A stretch of DNA of 64,000 nt, taken from NCBI GenBank assembly GCA_015660915.1, contig JACTTZ010000010.1:7513-71512 (forward strand), in the 5' to 3' direction. Positions 4,567 to 18,084 of this stretch are shown here, piece by piece. Both the position numbers and the translations under genes were made by a program. Positions within the stretch are counted from its first letter, which is position 1. Each line of letters begins with the position of its first letter. The notes below the pieces were generated by a model. That model searched no databases, was not told the origin of the DNA, and worked only from the letters and a program-made list of their open reading frames with translations. The stretch is from Methanomicrobia archaeon (GTDB lineage Archaea > Halobacteriota > Bog-38 > Methanoflorentales > Methanoflorentaceae).

Positions 4567-4696
4567 TCGCGGTTCTCACCCCAGCGTGCATCTGCCGCTT
4601 CATCTGCCAAATCAGCCACGTTTTCGGAGATTAATCTTGCGGTACGCTCAGCCAGACAGGAGATGAGGTGAGACGCTAGCTATCGCAGCAGGCATT

Positions 4697-5818
4697 CTAC
4701 GGAGCGAGAGGCTCTTTTGCCGTTTGGCATCGTGCGCTACGTGCTTCTTTGTCACAAATGACGTCAGCGATTTTTTCCGCCATCAGTCGCGCCGTCGTCA
4801 GTTTCCCGCCTATGACGTGGAAGGCATTCTTCGGAGCCTGTATCACTCGAAAATCGCGAGATTTTCGGCGTCCGTTCTCGAAATGGCTATCATTTTTGGC
4901 ACTTTCTGGATGATTGTCATCGGCGAGTGCCCGGACGCCGGCAAACGTGCTTAGCGTGGGTTGGTCCTTGACGCCGGGAAGAATCTGCGCAAATTCTTTC
5001 TTAAGATATGCGTCAGCCCAAGGCTGTGGATTCGCTTCTTCCGGGTTGTTAATCGTTGTTGACGTCGTTCCGAGCCACCCGTATCCATCGTGCACGATGT
5101 ATGCATCTGCGTCGGAGGGTTGGCGCAAATGCTGTATCCCGCGCGGAGATAATGCCTTTTGAACTATAATAGTGCCTTGGCTGTAAGTCACTGGGATGCT
5201 CGTATCGAGTTTGGCAGCTACCGTGTTGACCCACGGCCCCGTCGCGTTAATTATGTACGTAGTGCGCAAGTCGCCGTGGTTAGTCTTGATGCGGAATCCG
5301 TCATTGAGTTGGGTGATCGCACGTACCTCCGTTCCCTGGAAGAGACTGCCTCCGCAGAGCTCTGCAGAAGCACAATTGAGCCAGCAAAACCGTTGAGCAT
5401 TTATGTTTCTGTCGGTCGTTTCGACCGCAACAGCGAGATCTATGTTTAACGAGGGAATTTCTCTGAATACATCGCGTAAATCGAGTTCGGTCGCTTTGAC
5501 GTGAAGCTTCTTCGCTGCCCGGAGAGCGCCCCACGCGTACTCGGTGCTAAATCCAACGAAGTAGTTCTGCAACTCGCCGACGACTTCCGGAGCTATCGCA
5601 CTGATAATCGCGTTCTCCTCGGCGCACTCTTGTGCCACGATAGGGTCGCTGAGAACGTATCGCAGGCCACCGAGCAGATTCTGGTGGGACGCAGACGTCG
5701 TGCCACTGGCGATAGTGCGTCGTTCTAAGAGGGCCACTGAGAAGCCTCTCATCGCCAGATCGCGAAACGTCGAGGTGCCGGTTGCACCGCCCCCAAAGAT
5801 TACTACCTCGTATCGCAC
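4697..5818 (-). CDS. FAD-dependent glycerol-3-phosphate dehydrogenase-like oxidoreductase (GlpA/GlpD family, short form)
   Basis: GGGATG Rossmann motif, RDLAMRG, ASGTTSASHQNLLGGLRY, INATGPW, FAGVRAL, GGKLTTARLMAE. Ends where the GlpA C-terminal Fe-S domain would begin. Confidence 0.82.
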   Translation of the reverse strand: MRYEVVIFGGGATGTSTFRDLAMRGFSVALLERRTIASGTTSASHQNLLGGLRYVLSDPIVAQECAEENAIISAIAPEVVGELQNYFVGFSTEYAWGALRAAKKLHVKATELDLRDVFREIPSLNIDLAVAVETTDRNINAQRFCWLNCASAELCGGSLFQGTEVRAITQLNDGFRIKTNHGDLRTTYIINATGPWVNTVAAKLDTSIPVTYSQGTIIVQKALSPRGIQHLRQPSDADAYIVHDGYGWLGTTSTTINNPEEANPQPWADAYLKKEFAQILPGVKDQPTLSTFAGVRALADDNHPESAKNDSHFENGRRKSRDFRVIQAPKNAFHVIGGKLTTARLMAEKIADVICDKEARSARCQTAKEPLAP

Positions 5819-5821
5819 AGT

Positions 5822-6574
5822 TCACTTCTCGTGCTTTTTGATTTGCTGATACAGTGCTCTTGCGTAGAGCAGATCTTCATAGGTGTCGATTTCACAGCGG
5901 AGTAGCCCATTGGTATAAATAACGTGCAGCGTTGATGAATGTTGCATCAGGAGTCTGTCGAGCGGTTCCGAATACCATTCAGGGCGAGCTCTCGGCTCTT
6001 TGAGTGCGCGAGTGAACGCTTTCAGGAAGTCAGTACTGAGTTTGATCATGCTCGTATAAACAACGTTTCCTCGTACTCGCTTGCCGATACGTGCAGCGGT
6101 ATTGTTTGTCACTACGACTTTACAATCCTCGGGTTGAATGTCTATGCTGTTGTCGACGATGCAGGCGTTGTCGTACGGCGATTTGATAAGTTCCTTTAAA
6201 AGAGCCAGCTCGAAAAGTATGTCTCCGTCTAAAACAAGTACTGTGTCGTTTTCCGCATCAATGTGTTCTAACGCAAGCGAGAGACTGAAAGCGTTATCGG
6301 TTTGTTCGAACAGCTCGTTGTTGACGATAGAGACTGGAAGGCCCGTCTTGACGTTCGCGATGTGCTCTTGTACCAACACGCGCTTGTAACCGGCCACGAC
6401 AAAAACGTGGTTGACCGCAAGTCGCGCCAAGCACCGAATCTGGTGATCGATGATGGTATCCTCGTTGAGGGGCAACAAACATTTCGGCAAATCCTCAGTC
6501 AGAGGTCGCAATCTCGCAGAAGTGCCTGCTGCTAAAATTATTGCTTTTGTTTCCTTGCTTTTTTGATGCGTCAT
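5822..6574 (-). CDS. GT-A-fold nucleotidyltransferase, LicC/phosphocholine-cytidylyltransferase-like
   Basis: AIILAAGTSARLRPLTEDLPKCLL, VVAGYK, N..F..TDNAFSL, VLDGDILF and C-terminal EIDTYEDL. Confidence 0.85.
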   Translation of the reverse strand: MTHQKSKETKAIILAAGTSARLRPLTEDLPKCLLPLNEDTIIDHQIRCLARLAVNHVFVVAGYKRVLVQEHIANVKTGLPVSIVNNELFEQTDNAFSLSLALEHIDAENDTVLVLDGDILFELALLKELIKSPYDNACIVDNSIDIQPEDCKVVVTNNTAARIGKRVRGNVVYTSMIKLSTDFLKAFTRALKEPRARPEWYSEPLDRLLMQHSSTLHVIYTNGLLRCEIDTYEDLLYARALYQQIKKHEK

Positions 6575-6761
6575 CTGTTCTTAGCCGATATGCGGTCTCT
6601 GATCAGGCTCTTGAGTAGCGCCGCGTCGTGCGCTCCATAAGCCCTTGGTAGGTACAGTATTCTGAGAGAGCGACGAGTGAAACGGTGATTCCGATGGCTA
6701 TATTGCTAGGACCTAAGGCCGCGAGCAGAACAGTGATGCAGAGATCTGCTAATAAGACTTT

Positions 6762-6837
6762 TGATGTAGTTCTCGCGGCAAACACCCTTTAGAGCTCAGA
6801 CCAGGGTTCAAATCCAGACCCGGACGCTCATTTTTTT
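6762..6837 (+). pseudogene. Degenerate tRNA-like remnant followed by a T7 tract
   Basis: gatgtagt...ccctttagagctcagaccagggttcaaatcc...cggacgctca-ttttttt contains a TPsiC-like GGTTCAAATCC and a D-arm-like TGTAGT, but the stems do not pair. Confidence 0.3.
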
Positions 6838-6900
6838 AACATAAGATAACTAGAGCAGTTATTTGCTTCTATCAATTGTAAAATAGTATTAGTTTTTGAT

Positions 6901-7461
6901 TTGATGGACGATATGCGATTTCTATGTCGCCCATCCCTCGTTGCGGCGCTGCTCGTGTGGGTATCTCGGGTGGTTCGACGCGATAATCTTCACGGAGAGT
7001 CGAACTGGTCGGTGCATCGTCCCTCGCTACTTTTTTCAAGTGCCGATAGGGGCCCGGGCCTACGTGTTCATAGATGCTACGTGGCCGTGAGCGCTTCGGG
7101 AACCCAACGAGAGCTCTGTGGGATGGTCGGTATTTTTTGTACTACCCTTTGTCATCATCGCTTGGTTCTACACAGCGTGTATACTCAACCCCAGTGACGG
7201 ACGTTCCTAGTGCTGATCGCCATCCTCGCCCTCGACAATTTCACGAGTAAGTACGGCGTCTTCTCCTGCATTCTTATCGTCATCGTTCCTCTACCCGACG
7301 GTGATGTAGAACACGGTCGGGTCTTTTACGAGTTTCTACCTACCGGAGGCGCTAGTTTCTACGAGCCTTTCAGAATGGGTGGTCACAATCTCAGCAGGTG
7401 CATTTCTGTTGTGGGCCTAGGAGTTGAAGCGACAGCTTGGACACGGCTGGCGTTCGGATAG
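6901..7461 (+). pseudogene. Decayed integral membrane protein gene (possibly GT-C/GT87-like)
   Basis: Hydrophobic segments are spread over different frames (LLVW / GYLGWFDAIIF / GWSVFFVLPFVIIAWFY / LIAILALDNFTSKYGVFSCILIVIVPL) and separated by stops. Confidence 0.3.
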
Positions 7462-7589
7462 CGCACTGTAATCTGAGATTCCGCATCTCAAATTGGCAAA
7501 AGCAGGCCGCACAACGAAAAAGCAGACCCGGTAAAAAAGCGAAGATTCATACCTACGCGCCGTTGCACCTTTGATTCCGCGTGCTTTAG

Positions 7590-7633
7590 TTAAATCAAGC
7601 GTGAAGCCCCCTGCGAGAGCTAGGAGGTAGTCG
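7590..7633 (+). mobile_element. Possible IS200/IS605-family right-end remnant
   Basis: ttaaatcaagcgtgaagccccctgcgagagctaggaggtagtc: imperfect hairpin with a GNRA loop followed by tagtc, resembling tnpB-element ends (recalled pattern). No transposase or tnpB in the window. Confidence 0.3.
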
Positions 7634-7804
7634 CTGCAATGATGGTACCTAGTGTTCTGCGTGCCCCGAAAGCGGTGCTGCCGTAACGGCTTCCATCCGC
7701 GATAATACTCTCTTTGACCTACGCCTCACAAAGCAGCACAAACCGAAAGCCTTATCTCCCTTCTTTTTGCATTGCTGGCGTAACCAAACGTTCCGGCAGA
7801 CATT

Positions 7805-9679
7805 ATGAACGCTTATGGGCTTGCTGCTGTACTTATTGTGATCCTTCTTTCGTCCGCTGCTGGTCTTCCGACTGTCCGGGCTGCGGACGCCACAGTCAAT
7901 AAGAGCCTCCCCACCGCGGGGGGAGATTCCAACTACTCCCAGGCTCTGAGCAATGCCGCTATCGTGAACGCTTCCGCGACCCAGAAGAAGTACATCGTAT
8001 TTCGGGATGACGATATAGCACCGGACTATCCGAACCCCCATTATCTGGACACATTAAAAGCCGTCAATCAGGTGCACATTGATGAAAACGTCCCTGTGAC
8101 GCTAGCGGTCATTCCACATCCGGATCCGAATCTCAGCGCAAGCACGAACGAGTTGCTGGGAGACACATTGCTCCTCGACTATTTGCGCTCGATTGTGAAC
8201 AGCCCGCTGTTCGAATTCGCGCAGCACGGCTACACGCACCAAGAATACTCGCAAAAAACCGTGAGCACCGTGGAGCTTACCGGGGCAGCTCCACTTTTGG
8301 GTAGCGGCGGGCTGGCCGATGATTTCCCTGGGCTAACATCTGCGGCTCCGCTTGTTGGGCAGTCGCCGAGCGAGTTCTACGGGAGGCCATACGCTGATCA
8401 ATACAACATTATCAAACAAGGACGTGACGATATCAAGGGGGCGTTCGGGGTACAGCCAACGACCTTTGTTCCGCCTTGGAATACCGGTGACAGCAACACT
8501 CTGAAAGCTGCGAACGCACTCGGGTTCACGCTGTATAGCACATCGCCAGCGGACTTTAACACATACGATGCGATCTTGCAGGGGATCCGTGTCCAGGGCG
8601 TGCCCCTTTCGCTCGGCTGGGCAAGCGACACTGATTGGCAGGCGGGAATGTCGCAACTCAACCAGCAGACCGACAGCCTATTGAACGCAGCAAATGGCGG
8701 CGGAACTTTTGTGGTACTCTACCATTTCAAGGATTTTATGAACCCTGACGGATCGCCGGATCCGGCCCGAATAGCACTGTTCACGCAGTACATCGACCAT
8801 CTAAAAGGCCGCGGCGATGTGCTCTTCAGCACGCTTAGCGGTCAATCGGTGCTGAACCCCTCTCCAGCGCCAGCTGTGTACTCGCAGGATGGGAATAGTC
8901 TTGACGTCTTTGCACAAGGCGTATACCATGCCCTCTGGCACAAGGATTGGAATGGCACGACGGGCTGGTCCAGCTGGGAATACCTCGGCGGGTACCTGAC
9001 GTCGTCACCCGTTGTGACGTCATCGGGTAATGGTGCGATTGACGTCTTTGTGCGCGGCACCGACGGCGCCCTCTGGTCGAAGTATACCACGGATGGAGGG
9101 ACCAGCTGGTCCAACTGGATCTCTCTCGGCGGGCAGATTGCTGCCGGCACAGGACCAGCAGCGTGCTCATGGGGCTCAGGCCGTCTCGACGTCTTTGTAG
9201 AGGGTACGGATGGTGCTCTGTGGCATAAAGGAGGTACCGGCACGTGGTCAAGCTGGCAATCCCTCGGCGGGGTTCTTACGTCGTCACCCGCAGCGGCGTC
9301 ACAGACGACCAATAGCATTAACATCGTCGTACGCGGCAACGACGGTGCTTTGTGGCATAAGTGGTGGTCGAACGGATGGTCAAGCTGGCAATCATTGGGC
9401 GGAAAGATTGCCTCCGGTACAGGACCGGCGGCCAGCTCATGGGGCTCAGGCCGTCTCGACGTCTTTGTAGAGGGTACGAACGGCGCCCTGTGGCATCGAC
9501 CGTATAGCGGCAGCTGGGGAGGCTGGGACTCCCTTGGGGGGTACCTAACCTCGTCACCTACAGCAGCGTCATCGACTAGCGGTAAGATTGACGTCTTTGT
9601 CCGCGGCGGCGACAACGGCCTCTGGCAGAAGACCTATAACAACGGGTGGGTATCCTGGACTTCCGTCGGCGATATGTAA
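7805..9679 (+). CDS. Secreted NodB/CE4-type polysaccharide deacetylase (DUF2334-like) fused to a six-repeat Trp-rich PLL-like lectin beta-propeller
   Basis: Signal peptide; VFRDDDI, QHGYTH and FVPPWN motifs; six repeats of PA..SW..GRLDVFV.GTDGALWHK..W..W.SLGG. Confidence 0.85.
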   Translation: MNAYGLAAVLIVILLSSAAGLPTVRAADATVNKSLPTAGGDSNYSQALSNAAIVNASATQKKYIVFRDDDIAPDYPNPHYLDTLKAVNQVHIDENVPVTLAVIPHPDPNLSASTNELLGDTLLLDYLRSIVNSPLFEFAQHGYTHQEYSQKTVSTVELTGAAPLLGSGGLADDFPGLTSAAPLVGQSPSEFYGRPYADQYNIIKQGRDDIKGAFGVQPTTFVPPWNTGDSNTLKAANALGFTLYSTSPADFNTYDAILQGIRVQGVPLSLGWASDTDWQAGMSQLNQQTDSLLNAANGGGTFVVLYHFKDFMNPDGSPDPARIALFTQYIDHLKGRGDVLFSTLSGQSVLNPSPAPAVYSQDGNSLDVFAQGVYHALWHKDWNGTTGWSSWEYLGGYLTSSPVVTSSGNGAIDVFVRGTDGALWSKYTTDGGTSWSNWISLGGQIAAGTGPAACSWGSGRLDVFVEGTDGALWHKGGTGTWSSWQSLGGVLTSSPAAASQTTNSINIVVRGNDGALWHKWWSNGWSSWQSLGGKIASGTGPAASSWGSGRLDVFVEGTNGALWHRPYSGSWGGWDSLGGYLTSSPTAASSTSGKIDVFVRGGDNGLWQKTYNNGWVSWTSVGDM

Positions 9680-9692
9680 CGCTGTCACCACG

Positions 9693-10172
9693 GGCGTTGT
9701 TTGCGCACAAAGCACGAGGCGACGCAAAGACCAACGCCACCGGCTGGTATTCGCTCACCTCGAGTGAGCTATACACCCGCATCTTCGAGTTCCTCACGAA
9801 GTATTTAGCGAATGCCACCTACGCCCCCCTCGACCGCGACACGATATGCTGCAGTGACGCTGAAGGCGAGTTAGGAGGTTACTGAGATAGTACAGCAATC
9901 TATTCTTTTTTCGATTTCAAGGCCTTAGAACGCGCTGAGTGCGGCCTCTCGTCGTCAGTTTCAGATCGGAGCCTTTATTTATCTGGCACGTTCTTGGGCG
10001 TCTAAGAACATTGCAAGAGGCGACGGTGCGCGTAAACAAGATCATCTCATTTTCTCTAGTCATCATTTCCATTGCTGTCTTATTCGCGGGCGCTGTAACC
10101 GTTCCTGCCGCCGCGCAAAGCGATACGATGCAGTTCCGCTACAATGCCCAGCGCATCGGTGATTACAGCCCC
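9693..10172 (+). repeat. Upstream block U, copy 1 (Ig-like remnant + promoter region + signal peptide + start of mature protein)
   Basis: Aligns colinearly with 12396-12892, from ggcgttgtttgcgcacaaagcacgaggcgac through ggtgattacagccccgt. Confidence 0.9.
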
Positions 10173-12053
10173 GTGGCGGGGAAAAACGCATGGAGTGGCA
10201 ACACGTGGAGCTTTACGACCAGAGGCTATGTATTCTCTTCCCCCGCCGTCGCCAACGGCGTCGTCTACGTGGGGAGCGAGGATAACAACGTCTACGCCCT
10301 CGACGCCACCACCGGCGCGAAGCTGTGGACCTACACGACCGGAAGCAGCGTGTACTCCTCTCCGGCCGTCGCCAACGGCGTGGTCTACGTGGGAAGCTAT
10401 GACCACAACGTCTACGCCCTCGACGCCACCACCGGCGCGAAGCTGTGGACCTACACGACCGGAAGCAGCGTGGGGGGCGCCCCCACTGTCGCCAACGGCG
10501 TCGTCCCCGAGGGGAGCTATGACCAAAACGTCTATGCGACCGGAAGTGCCGTGTTCTCCTCTCCGGCCGTCGCCAACGGCGTCGTCTACGTGGGAAGCTA
10601 TGACCACAACGTCTATGCCCTCAACGCCATCACCGGGGCCAAGCTGTGGAGCTTCACGACCGGAAGCAGCGTGCACTCCTCTCCGGCCGTCGCCAACGGC
10701 GTCGTCTACGTGGGGAGCGATGACGGCAACGTCTACGCCCTTAACGCCACCACCGGCGCGAAGCTGTGGACCTACACGACCAGGCTCTACGTGGGCGGCG
10801 CCCCCGCCGTCGCCAACGGCGTCGTCTACGTGGGGAGCGATGACGGCACCGTCTATGCCCTCAACGCCATCACCGGGGCCAAGCTGTGGAGTTTCACGAC
10901 CGGAGGCTACGTGGGCGCATCCCCCGCCGTCATCAACGGGGTGGTCTACGTGGGGAGCTGGGACAACAACGTCTACGCCCTCGACGCCACCACCGGGGCC
11001 AAGCTGTGGAGCTTCACGACCGGAGGCTATGTTGACTCATCCCCTGCCTTCGTCAACGGCGTCGTCTACGTGGGGAGCCTTGACCACAACGTCTACGCCC
11101 TCAGCGCCATCACCGGGGCGGAACTGTGCTACTACACGACCGGAAATGCTGTTGTTTCCTCCCCCGCCGTCGTCAACGGCACGGTGTACGTGGGGAGCGA
11201 CAAGATCTATGCCATAGGCAACCCCCCCACGCTCACGCTCGCCTCGTCACCTGCCGCCGTCTCATGGGGCAATGGGCGAATCGACATAGTTGCGCGCGGC
11301 GGCGACGGCGCCCTCTGGCATAAGTACTACCAGAACGGCTGGTCCGGCTGGGAATCCCTCGGGGGAATCATTTACCCCGGCACAGGGCCCGCCGTGAGCT
11401 CATGGGCTGCGGGGCGGCTCGACATCTTTGTTGTAGGCACGGACCACGCCCTCTGGCACAAGTACTGGCAGAACGGCTGGTCCGGCTGGGAATCCCTCGG
11501 CGGGATCCTCACCTCATCACCCGCGGCGGCCTCACCGGCCTCTGGCAAGATCGACGTCTTTGTGCGCGGCACCGACAGCGGCCTCTGGCAGTTGGAGTAT
11601 AACAACAACGGGTGGGGAAGCTGGACCTCTCTCGGCGGGATCCTTTACCCCGGCACAGGACCGGCGGCCAGCTCATGGGGCTCAGGTCGTCTCGACGTCT
11701 TTGTCGTAGGCACGGACCACGGCCTGTGGCATCAAGGGTATAACGGCGCGTGGTCCGGCTGGGAATCCCTCGGCGGAATCCTCACCTCGTCACCCGCGGC
11801 GGCGTCATCGACTAGTGGCAAGATCGACGTCTTTGTGCGTGGCACCGACGCCGGCCTCTGGCAGGTGGAGTATTCCAACAACGGATGGCTTTCCTGGACC
11901 TCTCTCGGCGGAATCATCTACCCCGGCACAGGACCAGCGGTCAGCTCATGGGGCTCAGGTCGTCTCGACGTCTTTGTCGGGGGTACGGACCTCGCTCTGT
12001 GGCACAAGTACTGGCAGAACGGCTGGTCCGGCTGGGAATCCCTCGGCGGGTAA
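10026..12053 (+). CDS. Secreted PQQ/BamB-like beta-propeller + PLL-like lectin beta-propeller protein (C-terminus cut by nonsense codon)
   Basis: Likely GTG start at 10026 after aagagg; signal peptide; nine 40-aa SSPAVANGVVYVGS units (one defective); six lectin repeats; TAA replaces the TAC of GGYLTSSP. Confidence 0.87.
   Translation: MRVNKIISFSLVIISIAVLFAGAVTVPAAAQSDTMQFRYNAQRIGDYSPVAGKNAWSGNTWSFTTRGYVFSSPAVANGVVYVGSEDNNVYALDATTGAKLWTYTTGSSVYSSPAVANGVVYVGSYDHNVYALDATTGAKLWTYTTGSSVGGAPTVANGVVPEGSYDQNVYATGSAVFSSPAVANGVVYVGSYDHNVYALNAITGAKLWSFTTGSSVHSSPAVANGVVYVGSDDGNVYALNATTGAKLWTYTTRLYVGGAPAVANGVVYVGSDDGTVYALNAITGAKLWSFTTGGYVGASPAVINGVVYVGSWDNNVYALDATTGAKLWSFTTGGYVDSSPAFVNGVVYVGSLDHNVYALSAITGAELCYYTTGNAVVSSPAVVNGTVYVGSDKIYAIGNPPTLTLASSPAAVSWGNGRIDIVARGGDGALWHKYYQNGWSGWESLGGIIYPGTGPAVSSWAAGRLDIFVVGTDHALWHKYWQNGWSGWESLGGILTSSPAAASPASGKIDVFVRGTDSGLWQLEYNNNGWGSWTSLGGILYPGTGPAASSWGSGRLDVFVVGTDHGLWHQGYNGAWSGWESLGGILTSSPAAASSTSGKIDVFVRGTDAGLWQVEYSNNGWLSWTSLGGIIYPGTGPAVSSWGSGRLDVFVGGTDLALWHKYWQNGWSGWESLGG
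10230..11220 (+). repeat. Tandem 120-bp repeats encoding PQQ-like blades
   Basis: gtcgtctacgtggggagc...aacgtctacgccctc...accggcgcgaagctgtgg recurs with a 120-nt period; unit 3 is shortened by 39 nt. Confidence 0.92.
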
Positions 12054-12320
12054 CTGACCTCGTCACCCGCTGCGGTCACTTGTAATGGGCGAATCGACGT
12101 CTTTGTCAGCGGCAACGACGGCGCCTTCTGATAAAAAGACCATTCAGTGGGCAGACTGCCTAGACGCCCATCGCTACGTATCGTTGTCACCACACGCCCG
12201 CTCTGGGTAGTACACAGAGCGTATGAGCCGCCCGGCCCTACTACTTCCGCGCCTACTACGCCGGCAGCTCCGCGGACCGCAAGGCCTTCAGCCCAACCGT
12301 GAAGGGCACAGTGGCCTAGT
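12054..12320 (+). pseudogene. Decayed seventh lectin blade and Ig-like domain remnant downstream of the stop
   Basis: In frame after TAA: LTSSPAAVTCNGRIDVFVSGNDGAF** . Further on, PYYFRAYYAGSSADRKAFSPTVKGTVA* resembles the end of an Ig-like domain. Confidence 0.7.
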
Positions 12321-12391
12321 AGAGTCAACTGGTATACAACATCGACGAGCGCTGTCGTGACGATCACCGTTCATTAGTCCCGACTCGCGAG
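12252..12391 (+). repeat. Downstream block D, copy 1 (140 bp)
   Basis: Near-identical to 14069-14208 (cctactacgcc...gtggcctagtagagtcaactggtatacaacatcgacgagcgctgtcgtgacgatcaccgttcattagtcc.gactcgcgag). Confidence 0.92.
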
Positions 12392-12395
12392 CAAT

Positions 12396-12892
12396 GGCGT
12401 TGTTTGCGCACAAAGCACGAGGCGACCGCGAAGACCAACGCCACCGGCTGTATTCGCTCGCCGCGAGAGAGCTATATGCTGGCATGCACCGGCATCTTCG
12501 AGTTTCTCACGAAGTATCAATAGAGTGCCACCTACGCCCCCTTCGACTCCGACACGGCATACTGCAGTGACGGTGAAGGCGAGTTAGTAGAGGTCGCAGG
12601 GATAGCACAGCAATCTAATCTTTTTGCAATTTCAAAGCCTTATAACGCGCTGAGTGCGGCCTCTCGTGGTCAGTTTCAAACCGGAGTCTTTATAGTACCT
12701 ACGAGATTTTGTTAGGCGTCTAAGAACATTGCAAGAGGCGATGGTGCGCGTATACAAAATCATCTCATTTTCTATAGTGATCCTCCTCATTGCTGTATTA
12801 TTCGCAGGCGCTGTAACAGTTCCTGCAGCAGCACAGACCGATACAGTGCAGTTCCGCTACAACCCTCAGCACACGGGTGATTACAGCCCCGT
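12396..12892 (+). repeat. Upstream block U, copy 2
   Basis: Colinear with 9693-10172; begins 4 nt after block D copy 1 ends. Confidence 0.9.
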
Positions 12893-14015
12893 AGCCGGGA
12901 GCGAAACGGGCAAGCTGACGTGGAGCTTCAAGACTGGAAACTACGTGGGGGGCGCCCCCGCCGCCGTCAATGGGGTGGTCTACATAGGGAGCGATGACGG
13001 CAACGTCTACGCCCTCAACGCCACCACCGGGGCGAAGCTGTGGAACTTCACGACCGGAGGCTACGTGGGCTCATCCCCTGCCGTTGTCAACGACGTCGTC
13101 TACGTGGGGAGCTTTGACCACAACGTCTACGCCCTCAACGCCACCACCGGGGCGAAGCTGTGGAACTTCACGACCGGAGGCCAGGTTGACTCATCCCCTG
13201 CCGTTGTCAACGGGGTGGTCTACGTGGGGAGCCTTGACCACAACGTCTACGCCCTTGACGCTGCCACCGGGGCGAAAGTGTGGAACTTCACGACCGCAGA
13301 CAAGGTGTTCTCCTCTCCTGCCATTGCTAACGACGTCGTCTACGTGGGGAGCCTTGACAACAACATCTACGCCCTCAACGCCATCGCCGGGACGAAGCTG
13401 TGGAATTTCACGACCGGAAGCAGCGTGTTCTCCTCTCCTGCCGTCGCCAACGGCGTCGTCTACGTGGGAAGCTGGGACAAAAACGTCTACGCCCTCAACG
13501 CCACCACCGGGGCGAAAGTGTGGAACTTCACGACCGGAAGCAGAGTGTTCTCCTCTCCTGCCGTCGCCAACGGCGTCGTCTATGTGGGGAGCGACGACGG
13601 CAACGTCTACGCCCTCAACGCCACCACCGCGGCCAAGCTCTGGAACCACACGACGGCAGACAAGGTGTTCTCCTCTCCTGCCATCGCTAACGGCGTCGTC
13701 TACGTGGGGAGCTTTGACCACAACGTCTACGCCCTCAACGCCACCACCGGGACGACGCTGTGGAACCACACGACCGGAAGCAGAGTGTACGCCTCTCCTG
13801 CCATCGCTAACGGCGTCGTCTACGTGGGGAGCGTTGACCACAACATTTACGCCATCGGCAACGCAGCTCCGGCCCCAAGTCAGGGTACGAGCAACGCAGC
13901 TCCGGCCCCAAGTCAGGGTGCGCCGCCCGACGTCCTCGTCATGCTCGTTTTTGTCGGACTCATCTTTGTCGGACTCGTAATCGCAGCTTACGCAGTGAAA
14001 ACATACCGATACTGA
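12741..14015 (+). CDS. Membrane-anchored eight-bladed PQQ/BamB-like beta-propeller surface glycoprotein
   Basis: Signal peptide paralogous to the 10026 gene; eight 40-aa units; duplicated NAAPAPSQG linker; C-terminal TM helix and KTYRY tail. ATG 12741 or GTG 12744 start. Confidence 0.88.
   Translation: MVRVYKIISFSIVILLIAVLFAGAVTVPAAAQTDTVQFRYNPQHTGDYSPVAGSETGKLTWSFKTGNYVGGAPAAVNGVVYIGSDDGNVYALNATTGAKLWNFTTGGYVGSSPAVVNDVVYVGSFDHNVYALNATTGAKLWNFTTGGQVDSSPAVVNGVVYVGSLDHNVYALDAATGAKVWNFTTADKVFSSPAIANDVVYVGSLDNNIYALNAIAGTKLWNFTTGSSVFSSPAVANGVVYVGSWDKNVYALNATTGAKVWNFTTGSRVFSSPAVANGVVYVGSDDGNVYALNATTAAKLWNHTTADKVFSSPAIANGVVYVGSFDHNVYALNATTGTTLWNHTTGSRVYASPAIANGVVYVGSVDHNIYAIGNAAPAPSQGTSNAAPAPSQGAPPDVLVMLVFVGLIFVGLVIAAYAVKTYRY
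12940..13860 (+). repeat. Eight tandem 120-bp repeats
   Basis: Sequence lines 12961, 13081, 13201 ... 13801 align in register every 120 nt. Confidence 0.93.
13860..13919 (+). repeat. 27-bp direct repeat (33-nt period) encoding the NAAPAPSQG linker twice
   Basis: aacgcagctccggccccaagtcagggt occurs twice, separated by acgagc. Confidence 0.9.
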
Positions 14016-14068
14016 ATGGGCGATGTATGTTGGTTAAAAGAATACTGATGCGCCGGAGCTTGCGTTGC

Positions 14069-14208
14069 CCTACTACGCCGTCAGCTCCGTGGACCGCGAG
14101 GCCTTCAGCCCAACCGTGAAGGTCACAGTGGCCTAGTAGAGTCAACTGGTATACAACATCGACGAGCGCTGTCGTGACGATCACCGTTCATTAGTCCAGA
14201 CTCGCGAG
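14069..14208 (+). repeat. Downstream block D, copy 2
   Basis: Near-identical to 12252-12391. Confidence 0.92.
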
Positions 14209-14372
14209 AGTCTGTTGTCGGTCCGAGCTGAAACCAGAAGATGAGACGTCGGCCAAAGCGTAAACGCCGGAAACGTTTTCTATGCCGCTTCTCAAGCCAC
14301 TTTCACGGGCCGCGACGATTAACAACGTCTCAAAACCACAACCCCTATGTATCGTGGCGTAGACGTCTGCGC

Positions 14373-15925
14373 GTGGAAGTAGCAGGGCGAACGATAACCA
14401 AGTATAGCATCGCCTTGTTGGGCATTGTGCTCGCCGGCGCTTTTTTCAGGGTCTATCACTAGGCACACAAAGCCTGTGGCTCGATGAAGTCATATCCGTG
14501 CGTTGGAGCCTGTTGAGCGTGCCTCAAATGGTGCAAGTTACAGCGCAGGATGTGCATCCTCCCCTCTATTACTTCCTGCTACACTACTGGATGACGATTT
14601 TTGGCACCTCAGAGTTCGGTGTGAGGCTTCTATCGGCTCTTTTTGGGATCCTCGCGATACCGATGATCTACGTGGTGGGCCGTCAGCTCTTCAACAAGCA
14701 GGTAGGGCTGGTGGCTGCGCTCAATCTCGCGCTGTCATCGTTCAACATTATGTACTCCCAAGAGGCGCGGATGTATACCCTTATGGTCCTCTTGGCCCTT
14801 CTCTCTATGTACTTTTTCTGGCGCTTCTTACAGCAGGGGAATCTTGTTTCGTCTATCGGCTATGTTCTCTCAACAACGCTTTTGGTGTGGACGCACAATT
14901 ATGGCTGGTTTATCGTCATTGCTCAGAACATCTACGTCGTGATTTTGCTAGCGCTGTCAACGGATCGCACATTTCTGCTGAAGCGCTGGGCCGTGCTGCA
15001 AGCGATCGTTGTAGCGCTTTTTGTTCCGTGGATGGCCGTCTTGATCCAACAAATCTTGCGGCACTTAGCAACGGGATCCAGTTTAGCAGTCCCTACAATA
15101 GCCGATTTTATTTACACCTTTTCTGGCTATTCCGGCACGGTAGTGTTGTTAGTGCTCTTTCTGGGGTTGTCGGTAGTCTCCTTATTCGGGATTCAAAAAG
15201 TACGCGGTTCGATGGATTGGAAAGCTCCTTTGAAAGCTCTCGAAGGCTACGCTTGGGAAGTGCGTATTCAAGGTGCAGCACCGGTGCACTTTCTCGCGGT
15301 GTGGGTGCTCACCATCAACCTCATACCGTTCATTATTTCTCGCTTTTCCACCCCGATATACCTCGACAAATACACGATCGCAGCTTCAGTGGCGCTTTAC
15401 ATACTAGTCGCCAAGGGGATACGAAATATCAACTATAGGTACGCCCAGATCGCTGTTATCGGCATCATCGTCGTATTGTCTATGGCGAATTTGCAAGTGT
15501 ACTATACTTCGATAACAAAGCCGCAAGCGCGACAGGCGATTAGTTTCATTGACACAAATCTCAAAAGCGGAGATGTTGTTTTAATTTCTCCCGACGGCCA
15601 TAGCATAGTTTTTGACTACTACAACAACGGGATAGATGCTGTTGTCAAACCACTCCATTATTGGGGTGTTGTCGGCAACACAACCAACTCTTCGGCAACA
15701 CCGTCAGTCAAGGACAAAATAAACGGAATTCAGTCAGATGTGAGTGGTCACGACAGAGTATGGCTTTTCGCTTCAAACTTCATAGCTGGAAAGGCTGCGG
15801 AGAATTTCACATTACGCATTCTCAATGAATCATACGTGAACATTGAAACTAAGACTTACGCAGGTGGGAGCTCGCTTTTCACATCATATGGCTATGACGT
15901 GTACTTGTTTGAGAAACGCGCGTGA
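14373..15925 (+). pseudogene. GT-C fold (PMT/ArnT, GT39-like) lipid-phosphate-sugar transferase with a 1-nt deletion near 14459
   Basis: Frame 1 ...GAFFRVYH* joins frame 2 LGTQSLWLDEVISVRW if cac-cta is restored from cacta. Downstream motifs: DVHPPLYY, RLLSALFG, YSQEARMY. Confidence 0.85.
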
Positions 15926-15989
15926 ACTTCCTCGAGCCTTGACGTATCGCAGACAGGATCAATCAACGATCCGTCTGACGAACGACAAA

Positions 15990-16180
15990 ACTTGGCATTC
16001 GTTGGTGCAGTCGCTGAGCAACGAACAGATGAGATATCAAGTTCCTGGATGCCCGACGATATACACCAACGCGAGCGGCACGGCTAGGTTCACACAGACG
16101 TGGACGCAAGCCGGCACACTCCCTATTAAGCCTCCTTCGCTGGTGACACGTGGTATAAGGCATCGTCGGTCGCTATCTGA
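15990..16180 (+). pseudogene. Remnant of an Ig-like surface-protein domain
   Basis: TIYTNASGTARFTQTWTQAG, then in a shifted frame SFAGDTWYKASS. No start codon or signal peptide. Confidence 0.4.
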
Positions 16181-16647
16181 TGACTCCAGATCTGGTTGAT
16201 TGCATCAAATGCGCTACGCTTGCAACGCGGGCCAAGTTGCGGCTTATTGATGCCGTGCGCTTGCTTCGTCAGGAGCGAGATGTCTACGCGCACGCGATAG
16301 AGGGCTTGAGGTGTGACGCCGGAGACAAAATTGGCTTTACAGAGCAGTCATTGATTTTGCTCTCCAATGGGCTCATTTGTACGGGAAATACAACAGTATT
16401 TGGAAAAGAAAATCTCCAAACCACCAGCAGATGCTGAAGGAACGTCAGCGGAGAACTAACCAGCGCGTCTTTTTCCACATTTGAGGTAAATCGTTGGCAG
16501 CTCGTTAATGATGGAGTTTGAATCGCGCTATTGTCCTTCGCGTGACGTCTTACAGGGTAGCGGAGGGGGTCTCGCACACAAACGCTTGAGCGATGATCGA
16601 GCACTGTGTGGCCGGGGACAGTTGCTAACATAACGCAGGCCGCACAA

Positions 16648-16656
16648 GCTTTAAGT
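16648..16656 (+). promoter_or_regulatory. TATA-like element upstream of the nucleotide-sugar dehydrogenase/GT cluster
   Basis: caagctttaagta about 25-30 nt upstream of ATG 16680. Confidence 0.35.
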
Positions 16657-16679
16657 AAGCCCCAGCAAACCTCAAGTGG

Positions 16680-18084
16680 ATGCAGGCAATCTCAATCGTT
16701 GGCACCGGATACGTCGGACTAAGTACGGCCGTTTGTTTTGCCTCACGTGGTTTCCGCGTCATTGCATCTACTCACGACAAAGAAAAGGCTGAAACGATTA
16801 ATTCGAAAAGGGCGCCTTTTTATGAGCCAACGACTCGAAGAAATGCTCCGGAAAAGCGTCGAGTCGAAAATGCTGCGTGCGGTCGATACCCGCGATGAAG
16901 CGGTGCGTCAGACTAACGTGACGTTTCTTACGGTGGAGACTCCCGAGACTGCAGACGGACGAATCGACCTCCGCCACGTCGTTCGAGCCTGCGAGGAGAT
17001 CGGCCGTGCGCTTAAGAAGAAAAACGCCTACCATCTCGTCGTCATCAAAAGCACTGTCGTGCCTGGGACAACTCGTGATGTGGTGAAACCTATCCTTGAG
17101 AGGACAGCGGAGTTGAGCGCAGGCCCCGATTTTGGGTTGTGCATGAATCCCGAATTTTTGCGACAGGGCTCAGCAATCGCCGATACATTGCGTCCTGATC
17201 GCGTTGTGATAGGTGAAAACGACGAGCGCTCCGGCAAAATGCTCGAGGACCTGTTTGACAGTTTTTACGGGCACAAGGTCCGTACACTCAGGATGAACCT
17301 TGAATCGGCGGAAATGGTGAAATACGCCAGCAACGCATTTCTCGCAACGAAGATATCATACGCGAACGAGATCGCAAATATCTGTGAGAAGGTGTCTGGT
17401 GTCGACGTCTCACACGTTATGGCGGGAGTCGGGCTAGACGTGAGGATAAATCCGAAGTTCCTCAACGCAGGAGCCGGGTTTGGCGGGTCCTGTTTACCGA
17501 AGGATGTAAAAGCCGTGCGGGCGTTTGCAGCCTCTCATAGCTACGAAACGCCGCTGTTGCGCGCGGTGATCGCCGTGAATGACGCTCAAGCGCTTCACGT
17601 CGCTGAGCTCGCACTTGCGAAGCTCGGGCAGCCGAAAGGCAAAAAAGTAGCGCTTCTTGGCCTCGCTTTCAAGTCCAATACTGATGACGTGCGGGAAGCC
17701 CCCTCTTTGAAAATCGCTAAAGCGCTCCTCTACGCGGAAGCGTACGTCAGCGCGTTTGATCCAGTCGTCAAGAAGATCTCGCTCCCGGGATTTGAAGCGC
17801 TCGAATGTGCAGATTCGATCCCCGCCTGTCTGTCCGGCGCTCACTGCTGCGTCGTCATAACTGAGTGGGAAGAGTTCAAAGCCCTCACGCCTGACGACTT
17901 CATCAAATACATGGCACAACCCGTCGTGGTCGATGCTCGACGGATTTTTGATCCGCGACAGTTTCGCCAAAGGTTGGAGTTCAGCGCGGTCGGTCTGGGT
18001 GGCGGTGAGACCTTTGACGGAGTCCCGTGCGCCGTGACATCCAAACCGCGCACAGAACCGCCTGATGCGCTTAGGGTTGAATAG
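16680..18084 (+). pseudogene. ugd: UDP-glucose/GDP-mannose dehydrogenase family gene with a +1 insertion at about 16830
   Basis: Frame 1: IVGTGYVGL...APFYEP. Frame 2: RLEEML...IKSTVVPGTT, NPEFLRQG, KYASNAFLATKIS, GFGGSCLPKD, GLAFKSNTDDVREAP. The sequence cca-a-cga has one extra A. Confidence 0.88.

Follow-up and report, generated by a model that had tools for sequence, protein, structure and literature searches.

Introduction

Mycoplasma families of the Vsp/Vlp type join conserved 5' ends to variable 3' modules and are multi-copy, with recombining paralogs and internal repeats. Methanogens encode "cell surface proteins" with eight-blade PQQ-like propellers, and proteins with a C-terminal PGF-CTERM signal are sorted by archaeosortase A. 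So far, the PLL-type lectins that have been characterised are all stand-alone, seven-bladed proteins from insect pathogens. Their family, PF26607, is already listed as present in archaea (PMC11186620). Here we analyse a tandem pair of genes for secreted propeller proteins, units 1 and 2, in a peat methanogen (Methanomicrobia archaeon, assembly GCA_015660915.1). The pair lies in a stretch of 64,000 nucleotides (nt), hereafter the window, which corresponds to C8:7513-71512 of this genome (2.04 Mb in 27 contigs, 90.8% complete). Coordinates without a contig label refer to the window. Labels beginning with G denote genomes of the genus and those beginning with L the metagenome or relative contigs that we read; C denotes contigs of the own genome unless prefixed.

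The original prediction, made from the letters of the window, described the pair as a modular adhesin kit reshuffled by recombination between shared blocks. We favour a different account, with a probability of roughly 75%: the units are two old tandem paralogs in a genus-wide family of secreted surface proteins, shaped by ordinary homology-driven recombination and not by a programmed system.

Results

Two tandem units with shared flanking blocks

Comparison of positions 6000-18000 with themselves resolved two tandem units, 9693-12391 and 12396-14208, separated by the four bases CAAT (12392-12395). Common to both are a 5' block (U), a PQQ-like propeller and a 140-nt 3' block (D), as originally described, and the repeats and tail sequence confirm that unit 1 ends in a lectin propeller and unit 2 in a linker plus anchor. 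The individual features are listed in Table 1. U1 (9693 to ~10175) is collinear with U2 (12396 to ~12900). Over the non-coding part (9693-10028 against 12396-12743), 288 positions match and 44 mismatch (86.7%); identity between the copies reaches 96% in the first 55 nt and 83% in the signal-peptide codons, and the two copies of D agree at 135 of 140 positions (96%). These levels exceed chance by far. The genome-wide search for both blocks that had been proposed found no further copy of U or D in the own genome beyond this locus. The blocks are real, and a dispersed repeat or miniature inverted-repeat transposable element (MITE) is ruled out here. An Rfam scan of 9000-15000 gave no match at E ≤ 1.

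Unit 1 most likely starts at GTG 10029, which has GAGG 9 nt ahead of it and a homologous codon at the opening of unit 2. The start of unit 2 is most likely ATG 12741 (or GTG 12744); 12741 is also used by public gene calls. With these starts, ~335 nt of each upstream block are non-coding.

Age of the duplication and its state in the population

A tree built from the N-terminal 150 residues joins unit 2 to the syntenic gene of G013 (support 99/94), with unit 1 as sister to the two (81/73). The coding site patterns agree with the tree (a ~25-nt promoter-proximal patch, described below, differs), and synteny with G013 extends to the flanking glycosyltransferase genes, at ~77% DNA identity. With an ortholog of unit 2 in the nearest species and unit 1 branching off outside that pair, the duplication is old and precedes the split from that species, a point on which the original interpretation finds no support. 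G013:C32 was considered for a unit 1 ortholog and set aside, as that contig is not syntenic.

The population evidence comes from exact-protein look-ups in public assemblies, where the deacetylase encoded upstream of unit 1 occurs in 56 record blocks and unit 2 in 57; we read 23 contigs. Six of them (JGI, ENA and NCBI assemblies) were compared with window positions 7001-16000, or as much of these as they reach: five are 100% identical and one carries three single-nucleotide polymorphisms (SNPs). The reference arrangement is found in most of the 23 contigs, as far as they extend. Identity of independent contigs with the window excludes misassembly and speaks against frequent shuffling. The tandem arrangement is thereby secured. 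The claim of active reshuffling finds no support: a fixed architecture, which most contigs show at the level of the units, is the outcome that the original prediction had itself named as refuting.

Rare variant contigs and the case for ongoing surface variation

Three contigs bear on whether variation continues at the locus. L145 carries two A>T changes, at 13036 and 13156, exactly 120 nt apart and thus at the same position of consecutive unit 2 blades; this spacing hints at conversion from blade to blade, or at an effect of assembly across repeats. L149 (JGI 3300009548) is identical to the window save for a clean loss of 240 nt, 10610-10849, which removes two unit 1 blades and has a 42-nt exact direct repeat at its borders (10610-10651 and 10850-10891). 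Searches for this deletion elsewhere found no record of the exact product and no match to the junction pattern in metagenome contigs, where near-identical records may be hidden. The ENA contig k141_321572 (sample ERZ27249763; L147, L150 and L156) encodes a 285-aa protein whose 5' part is the signal peptide and lectin of a gene on C15 and whose 3' part is the unit 1 lectin. The switch falls inside the longest run that the C15 and unit 1 lectins share without a difference (88 nt). At its far end the contig carries the deacetylase and the 5' part of unit 1, stopping 15 nt before that run. This geometry, seen in a single contig, fits both a ~27-kb inversion between inverted lectin repeats and an assembly chimera.

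These observations are what can be said for ongoing surface variation, in which lectin modules and repeated blades would serve as substrates of RadA-type recombination, changing blade number and, through the ~27-kb inversion, making two chimeric genes. The deletion in L149 cuts cleanly between exact repeats, and 42 nt is shorter than the k-mers usual for such assemblies; the joint in k141_321572 lies within the 88-nt run and its other end has the matching geometry; the two SNPs of one assembly sit one blade period apart. Each variant, however, occurs in one of the 23 contigs read, and the chimeric product is on record in one contig. Assemblers can form chimeras at repeats, and those that iterate over k may carry low-k joins. 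Most contigs hold the reference form, although assemblies hide rare variants. We therefore treat ongoing variation as a tentative candidate, unlikely but well short of negligible.

Propellers and C-terminal tails of the two units

Both units open with a nearly identical signal peptide followed by the PQQ-like propeller. PF13570 scores 231.9 bits in unit 1 and 291.8 bits in unit 2 (gathering cut-off 133), and PF13360 is matched as well. The best matches among solved structures (phmmer against PDB) are the designed Cake and Bagel proteins, 3hxj and BamB, with Cake10 at E = 6.6e-109. Models of quinoprotein dehydrogenases were not matched at their cut-offs (TIGR03075, 129-132 bits against 480; TIGR03074, 65-73 against 833), and from these profile scores we classify the propeller as PQQ-like (BamB-like) and non-quinoprotein. 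That of unit 2 has eight 40-aa blades. That of unit 1 has nine repeats, eight plus a third one of 27 instead of 40 residues, in which VVPEGS stands where the other repeats have VVYVGS. Residues 145-177 of unit 1 have a low predicted local distance difference test score (pLDDT) in a single-sequence AlphaFold model; the model of the whole protein was poor (pLDDT 50.5) and was kept out of the fold search, for which an alignment-based model of the lectin was used instead. In repeat 8 of unit 1 a Cys replaces the blade Trp, and the last PQQ blade is shortened.

The C-terminus of unit 2 consists of a Pro/Ala/Ser/Gln linker, a hydrophobic stretch and KTYRY. We scored four tails with the PGF-CTERM model TIGR04126 (cut-off 24.5 bits). 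The tails of the paralog C9b (34.2) and of G017 (27.6) pass, whereas those of unit 2 and G013 gave no match, for unit 2 even at E ≤ 10. The unit 2 tail has PPD in place of PGF and a longer hydrophobic stretch than PGF-CTERM tails. Homologous tails in the relatives G013, G017 and G008 read TPGF(D/E)V, and that of G002 has PNF. Judged by these alignments, the unit 2 tail descends from a PGF-CTERM signal that lost its PGF motif and probably stays in the membrane as a plain anchor. Unit 2 has 12 N-X-S/T sequons and unit 1 has two; the anchored paralog is thus predicted to be, probably, heavily N-glycosylated. In unit 1 the membrane tail is replaced by the lectin precisely where the propeller ends, after YAIGN.

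Separately, we observed that the propeller shares 60-71% identity over ~350 aa with proteins in metagenome-assembled genomes (MAGs) of peat Acidobacteriaceae, Terriglobales and Bathyarchaeia (L028, L030, L034, L046 and others), a level also seen with some proteins of its own genus. Cross-domain transfer in peat communities may lie behind this, or convergence of consensus-like repeats.

A six-bladed PLL-type lectin module

The last 271 residues of unit 1 form six repeats of ~45 aa, ~40-50% identical in repeat sequence to the Photorhabdus PLL family (phmmer against PDB: PHL 5mxe, E = 3.8e-110; PLL 5c9l, E = 3.5e-89). The alignment-based AlphaFold model of this region is compact (pLDDT 94.9, predicted template modelling score 0.92). 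In Foldseek its top 22 hits by E-value are all PHL or PLL (E ~1e-22), and its TM-scores are higher to the six-bladed AAL/AFL/AOL lectins (0.83-0.86) than to PLL/PHL (0.74-0.77). Sequence matches, repeat count and TM-scores together place the module in the PLL sequence family, with six blades and not seven. The Thr and two Trp residues of the fucose site in PHL (Thr194, Trp199 and Trp214; PMC5584973) align to the motifs G-T-D..L-W and W..W, which are kept in blades 2-6 (five of the six); in blade 1 a Gly replaces the Thr.

Neither the module nor its fusion to a PQQ-like propeller is new. More than 5,000 proteins of a large protein collection match the lectin at E ≤ 1e-20, where its partners include peptidases, tyrosinases, GH18, DUF2334 deacetylases, thioredoxins and PMT transferases, and a few fusions of a PQQ propeller with a PLL lectin occur (P0004, P0026, P0030). 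Another protein of the collection, P0071, combines a PMT-type glycosyltransferase (PF02366, PF13231) with a PLL lectin propeller; at the present locus a PMT_2 gene adjoins unit 2.

Within the own genome we found 17 matches to the lectin module, which is carried by at least nine proteins besides unit 1, following a deacetylase, a papain-like peptidase, a thioredoxin-like and other domains. The genus is rich in this module, and no match was found in the other families sampled from the phylum. Copies have either four or six blades and fall into two circular permutations (in the own genome at C15:4400-5929, C15:48089-49237, C18:1242-3362, C6:1861-3252, C9:196032-198050 and C8:0-2270). One begins at strand A and ends in SLGGM and a stop; the other begins with a lone D strand (W.AWSNLGG) and ends in LWQREY.. 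and a stop, its old ending persisting as a fossil past the stop. One ancestral 3' untranslated region (UTR) is common to all of these genes. The original prediction correctly saw lectin DNA shared with the neighbouring deacetylase gene: a 34-nt motif lies at 9165 and 9435 in that gene and at 11671 and 11944 in unit 1. The kinship is not the closest one, as the unit 1 lectin is 60-65% identical to that of the deacetylase and 80-83% (aa) to dispersed paralogs on another contig.

Past the TAA at 12051, the frame of unit 1 runs on as LTSSPAAVTCNGRIDVFVSGNDGAF and two stops, a dead lectin blade; in G002 its counterpart is intact and closes the gene. Exactly six blades remain ahead of the stop, which matches the intact deacetylase and C6 paralogs in both number and ending; the 3' UTR beyond the dead blade is common to lectin-ending genes. 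Unit 1 might accordingly be read as a decaying, non-functional by-product of recombination, given its truncated third PQQ repeat with a low-confidence model, the loss of a structural Trp in blade 8, the short last blade, the nonsense codon that removed a blade still intact in G002, and a blade-number variant in the population. Against decay, the frame of 674 codons is intact and identical in many samples, the stop falls at an exact blade boundary, the six-blade module is modelled with high confidence as a closed propeller, and its sugar-site residues are conserved. We consider decay improbable.

An old intergenic spacer between the units

D runs directly into the start of U in G013, G002, G017, G006 and others. 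On G013:C8 they follow a PQQ-anchor gene. On G002:C21 the order is lectin-gene end, shared 3'-UTR tail, D, U and PQQ-anchor gene, and on G008:C14 it is PQQ, U, PQQ-anchor, D and lectin gene. In G017 the core of the spacer (window ~12330-12484) follows each of five tandem immunoglobulin-like (Ig-like) genes. An alignment of 19 copies identifies the second half of D as the last codons of these Ig-like genes (STSAVVTITVH and the stop), and what comes after it as their 3' flank, so that D is a fossil of the final ~40 codons of such a surface-protein gene, its frame broken. The contiguity of D with the start of U in relatives and the likeness of D to the end of an Ig-like gene make the D|U joint an old spacer and not a joint produced by this duplication. 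The core is matched 16 times in G017, 12 times in G008 and 7 times in G005, and the own genome keeps the fossil alone. The tandem genes concerned encode 700-1030 aa and end in YYATFAGD..Y..STS.V.TI.VH and a stop (L132, which is G017:C1:1160001-1180000; L133; L134). For these other genomes, too, a MITE was considered and rejected, since the multi-copy part is the 3' end plus flank of tandem Ig-like genes.

The first part of U, 9693 to ~9790 in U1 and 12396 to ~12490 in U2, is the 3'-flank element common to the Ig-like genes of the genus. Further downstream, U1 has T6 at 9906-9911, a TATA-like TTTATT at 9974-9979 and GAGG at 10017-10020; U2 has T5 at 12621-12625, a TATA-like TTTATA at 12689-12694 and GAGG at 12735-12738. 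The TATA-like boxes lie ~50 nt before the start codons. By the rules known for archaeal promoters and terminators, we infer that U comprises the 3' UTR and terminator of the upstream gene followed by the promoter and leader of the propeller gene. Between the TATA-like box and the leader, U2 differs over ~25 nt (window 12695-12720) from U1, G013 and G002 at about half of the positions. In this patch the latter three agree with each other. Units 1 and 2 may be regulated differently.

The 3' UTR of the deacetylase is short and runs directly into U1 13 nt past the stop. As this 13-nt stub matches the opening of the 3' UTR common to lectin-ending genes and U begins directly after it, a plain deletion of ~210 nt explains the left edge of U1. 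The copies in L134 and L137 lose homology within ~20 nt of one spacer point, and D here ends in the 8-nt palindrome CTCGCGAG. Identity to G013 is 85-92% in D and the start of U, against 77-79% in flanking and neighbouring coding DNA. RNAalifold on 13 copies of the D/U core found no conserved hairpin (-9.07 kcal/mol, covariation contribution -0.05 kcal/mol); small-RNA and attC-like readings of the core were dropped for want of covariation.

The conservation of the spacer can be joined to the variant contigs in a wider proposal, in which lectin modules, near-identical blades and 5'/3' blocks would constitute a homology-driven system of surface variation (in blade number, and by a ~27-kb inversion swapping lectin tails), with the D/U spacer as a selected functional element, be it a terminator, a 3'-UTR signal or a recombination hotspot. 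We regard this combination as quite improbable.

A programmed cassette system comparable to integrons, shufflons or pdif modules, in which the D/U boundary would be the site of a site-specific recombinase acting on [U-gene-D] cassettes, is very improbable. Such a system could account for the outer ends at 9693 and 14208, which fall within 4 nt of one point in the D.U sequence, for the loss of homology within ~20 nt among genus copies, and for a spacer that is multi-copy and more conserved than the neighbouring genes. Yet no tyrosine recombinase (PF00589) is encoded on contig C8, the two of the genome being on C9 and C7, and no recombinase domain was found among the scanned neighbour genes. The aligned copies fold weakly, the multi-copy element of G017 is merely the end and flank of tandem genes, a plain deletion accounts for the left boundary, and the architecture is fixed in the population. 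A diversity-generating retroelement was also rejected, as no reverse transcriptase (PF00078) was matched in the own genome at its 90.8% completeness.

An assembly artefact (paralog collapse or chimera) is scarcely credible: the region is highly repetitive and many assemblies break in unit 1 or U2, but contigs of different pipelines (JGI, ENA k141, NCBI MAG) from several samples are base-for-base identical across it, and relatives independently show the orders lectin-D-U-PQQ-anchor and PQQ-anchor-D-U.

The family in the own genome and the genus

Four genes of the own genome combine the signal peptide with a PQQ propeller: the two units, C9:196038-198050, which is also a fusion to a lectin with a different joint, and C9:27659-28594, a PGF-CTERM form. 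In a fifth gene, C15:4409-5929, the lectin follows the same signal peptide directly, with no propeller between. The propeller is present in 14 of 18 genomes of the genus, mostly in anchored forms of 410-450 aa. Behind the signal peptide and PQQ core stand a PGF-CTERM anchor (the commonest tail), a PLL lectin, an Ig-like domain (L031, L049) or other tails; in G003 an Ig-like domain is joined by a one-blade lectin stub. Among named records, the nearest are MAGs labelled Methanomicrobia, Methanobacteriota and Halobacteriota from the SPRUCE and Stordalen ("bog_38") peatlands. Judged by these isolate names, the organism probably belongs to the Methanoflorentaceae. Just downstream of the syntenic locus in G002:C21 (L136) we also noted two near-identical tandem genes, 4604-5710 and 6086-7195, encoding 368 and 369 aa; both products begin with MKMNTKRTIAITLTLLMTASAVGTL and end in an Ig-like SPVLTIQVG.

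The comparison of module order with relatives thus bore out the predicted kit. Interchangeable tails and a portable lectin across the genus support it in the evolutionary sense, with swapped tails, fossils at the joints and variants at exact repeats. As a claim of active reshuffling it was not supported, the unit architecture being identical in most of the contigs read. The adhesin role assigned to the kit is putative.

Table 1. Features of the tandem locus and its two neighbours (window coordinates)
Feature	Position	Strand	Basis
Upstream neighbour, secreted DUF2334/CE4-like deacetylase with six-blade PLL-type lectin	7805..9679	+	Pfam PF10096, PF01522, DUF346; PF26607 Beta-prop_PLL (precomputed); blade count
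U1, non-coding upstream block	9693..10028	+	Alignment with U2 and genus copies; motif positions
Unit 1 coding sequence, 674 aa	10029..12053	+	Signal peptide 10029-10121; PQQ-like array 10221-11222; linker and lectin 11223-12050; TAA 12051-12053
Truncated third PQQ repeat of unit 1	10461..10541	+	Repeat alignment; low pLDDT in single-sequence model
Two PQQ blades (240 nt) missing in contig L149	10610..10849	+	Contig comparison
88-nt run identical to paralog lectin C15:4984-5071	11720..11807	+	Switch point of the chimeric gene in L150/L156
In-frame fossil lectin blade (LTSSPAAVTCNGRIDVFVSGNDGAF and two stops)	12054..12143	+	Homologous blade intact in relative G002
3' UTR tail of lectin-ending genes (GTCACCAC...CTCTGGGTAGTACAC...GAGCCGCCCGGC)	12144..12251	+	blastn against paralogs and relatives; in-frame read-outs past stops; G002 alignment
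D1, frame-broken fossil of an Ig-like gene 3' end (YYAGSS...; ...NWYTTSTSAVVTITVH and stop) plus 15 nt	12252..12391	+	Alignment with relatives
U2, non-coding	12396..12740	+	Alignment; motif positions
Unit 2 coding sequence, 424 aa	12741..14015	+	Signal peptide 12741-12836; eight PQQ-like blades 12936-13862; linker 13863-13931; hydrophobic anchor 13932-13997; KTYRY
D2, second downstream block, not followed by the start of U	14069..14208	+	96% identical to D1
Downstream neighbour, PMT_2-type glycosyltransferase	14498..15925	+	Opens the right-hand part of the surface-glycan gene island

Discussion

We propose that a tandem duplication took place before the split from the nearest species and that it would have been followed by a fusion at the domain boundary, either through a deletion linking a PQQ-anchor gene to the lectin gene behind it, or at the duplication joint. 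Homologous exchange with dispersed lectin paralogs may have come later, and a nonsense mutation would have trimmed the unit 1 lectin to six blades. Unit 2 is the canonical form, its propeller putatively displayed and tethered to the membrane. Unit 1 would be released and held or targeted by binding of its lectin to glycans, for example those of the envelope made by the surrounding island. The neighbouring genes are glycan-synthesis genes, and the location of the locus inside such an island supports this functional reading.

Several points weigh against this history. Duplication, fusion and conversion may have come in another order, and a simple origin at the duplication joint needs a later conversion, given the 60-65% identity between the unit 1 and deacetylase lectins. 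The wear of unit 1 (its truncated blade, the Trp-to-Cys change in blade 8, the short last blade and the trimmed lectin) may leave its full function in doubt. D and the first 55 nt of U (96% each) are more alike than the rest (83-86%); such high identity, within the genome and to G013, hints at function, constraint or conversion that the account does not explain. Nor does it explain why U1 begins and D2 ends within 4 nt of one spacer point: a plain deletion explains the left edge but not the boundary clustering as a whole.

Old tandem paralogy with homology-driven recombination nevertheless makes the locus a clear, dated example of how archaeal surface proteins are built from a signal peptide, a PQQ-like propeller, a PLL lectin, an Ig-like domain and a PGF-CTERM anchor, modules that recombine by duplication, deletion and homologous exchange and leave fossils at the joints. 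A peat methanogen uses PLL-type lectins as four- or six-blade C-terminal modules on many secreted enzymes, which bears on the glycan contacts of dominant acidic-peat methanogens with their own envelope, their neighbours and plant litter. A new mechanistic question might come only from the two rare recombinant contigs, and the remainder of the locus opens none; beyond those contigs, the well-conserved D/U spacer is the other part that could add interest.

Comparison with known systems

The unit 1 module resembles the Photorhabdus lectins (PLL, PHL and PLL2-5; PropLec7A, PF26607) in its repeats, its W-motif blades and the Thr and two Trp present in most blades. It differs in having six blades (four in some paralogs) where PLL has seven, and in standing at the C-terminus of multidomain secreted proteins where the PLL lectins stand alone. 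Its ring geometry is nearer to that of the six-bladed AAL/AFL lectins, and sugar binding, which in the PLL family is to fucose or O-methylated sugars, is predicted. With the methanogen cell surface proteins that carry eight-blade PQQ-like/BamB-like propellers (PDB 3hxj, natural relatives of Cake and Bagel) the units share 40-aa blades, secretion and a C-terminal anchor, except that unit 1 has one more repeat, a truncated one, and ends in a lectin where the anchor would be. The tail of unit 2 is homologous in position and in its hydrophobic and basic parts to those of PGF-CTERM proteins sorted by archaeosortase A, with the PGF motif replaced by PPD.

Unlike integron-like cassette arrays, the locus has no recombinase gene among its scanned neighbours and no conserved hairpin in the aligned D/U cores. 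Like the Vsp/Vlp-type families, it has a conserved promoter, leader and signal peptide, belongs to a multi-copy family and bears signs of recombination among paralogs and repeats; unlike them, it is fixed in nearly all sampled contigs, with no high-frequency switching seen and no invertible promoter or dedicated recombinase. The locus is therefore no new kind of system and represents ordinary evolutionary domain shuffling in a large surface-protein family.

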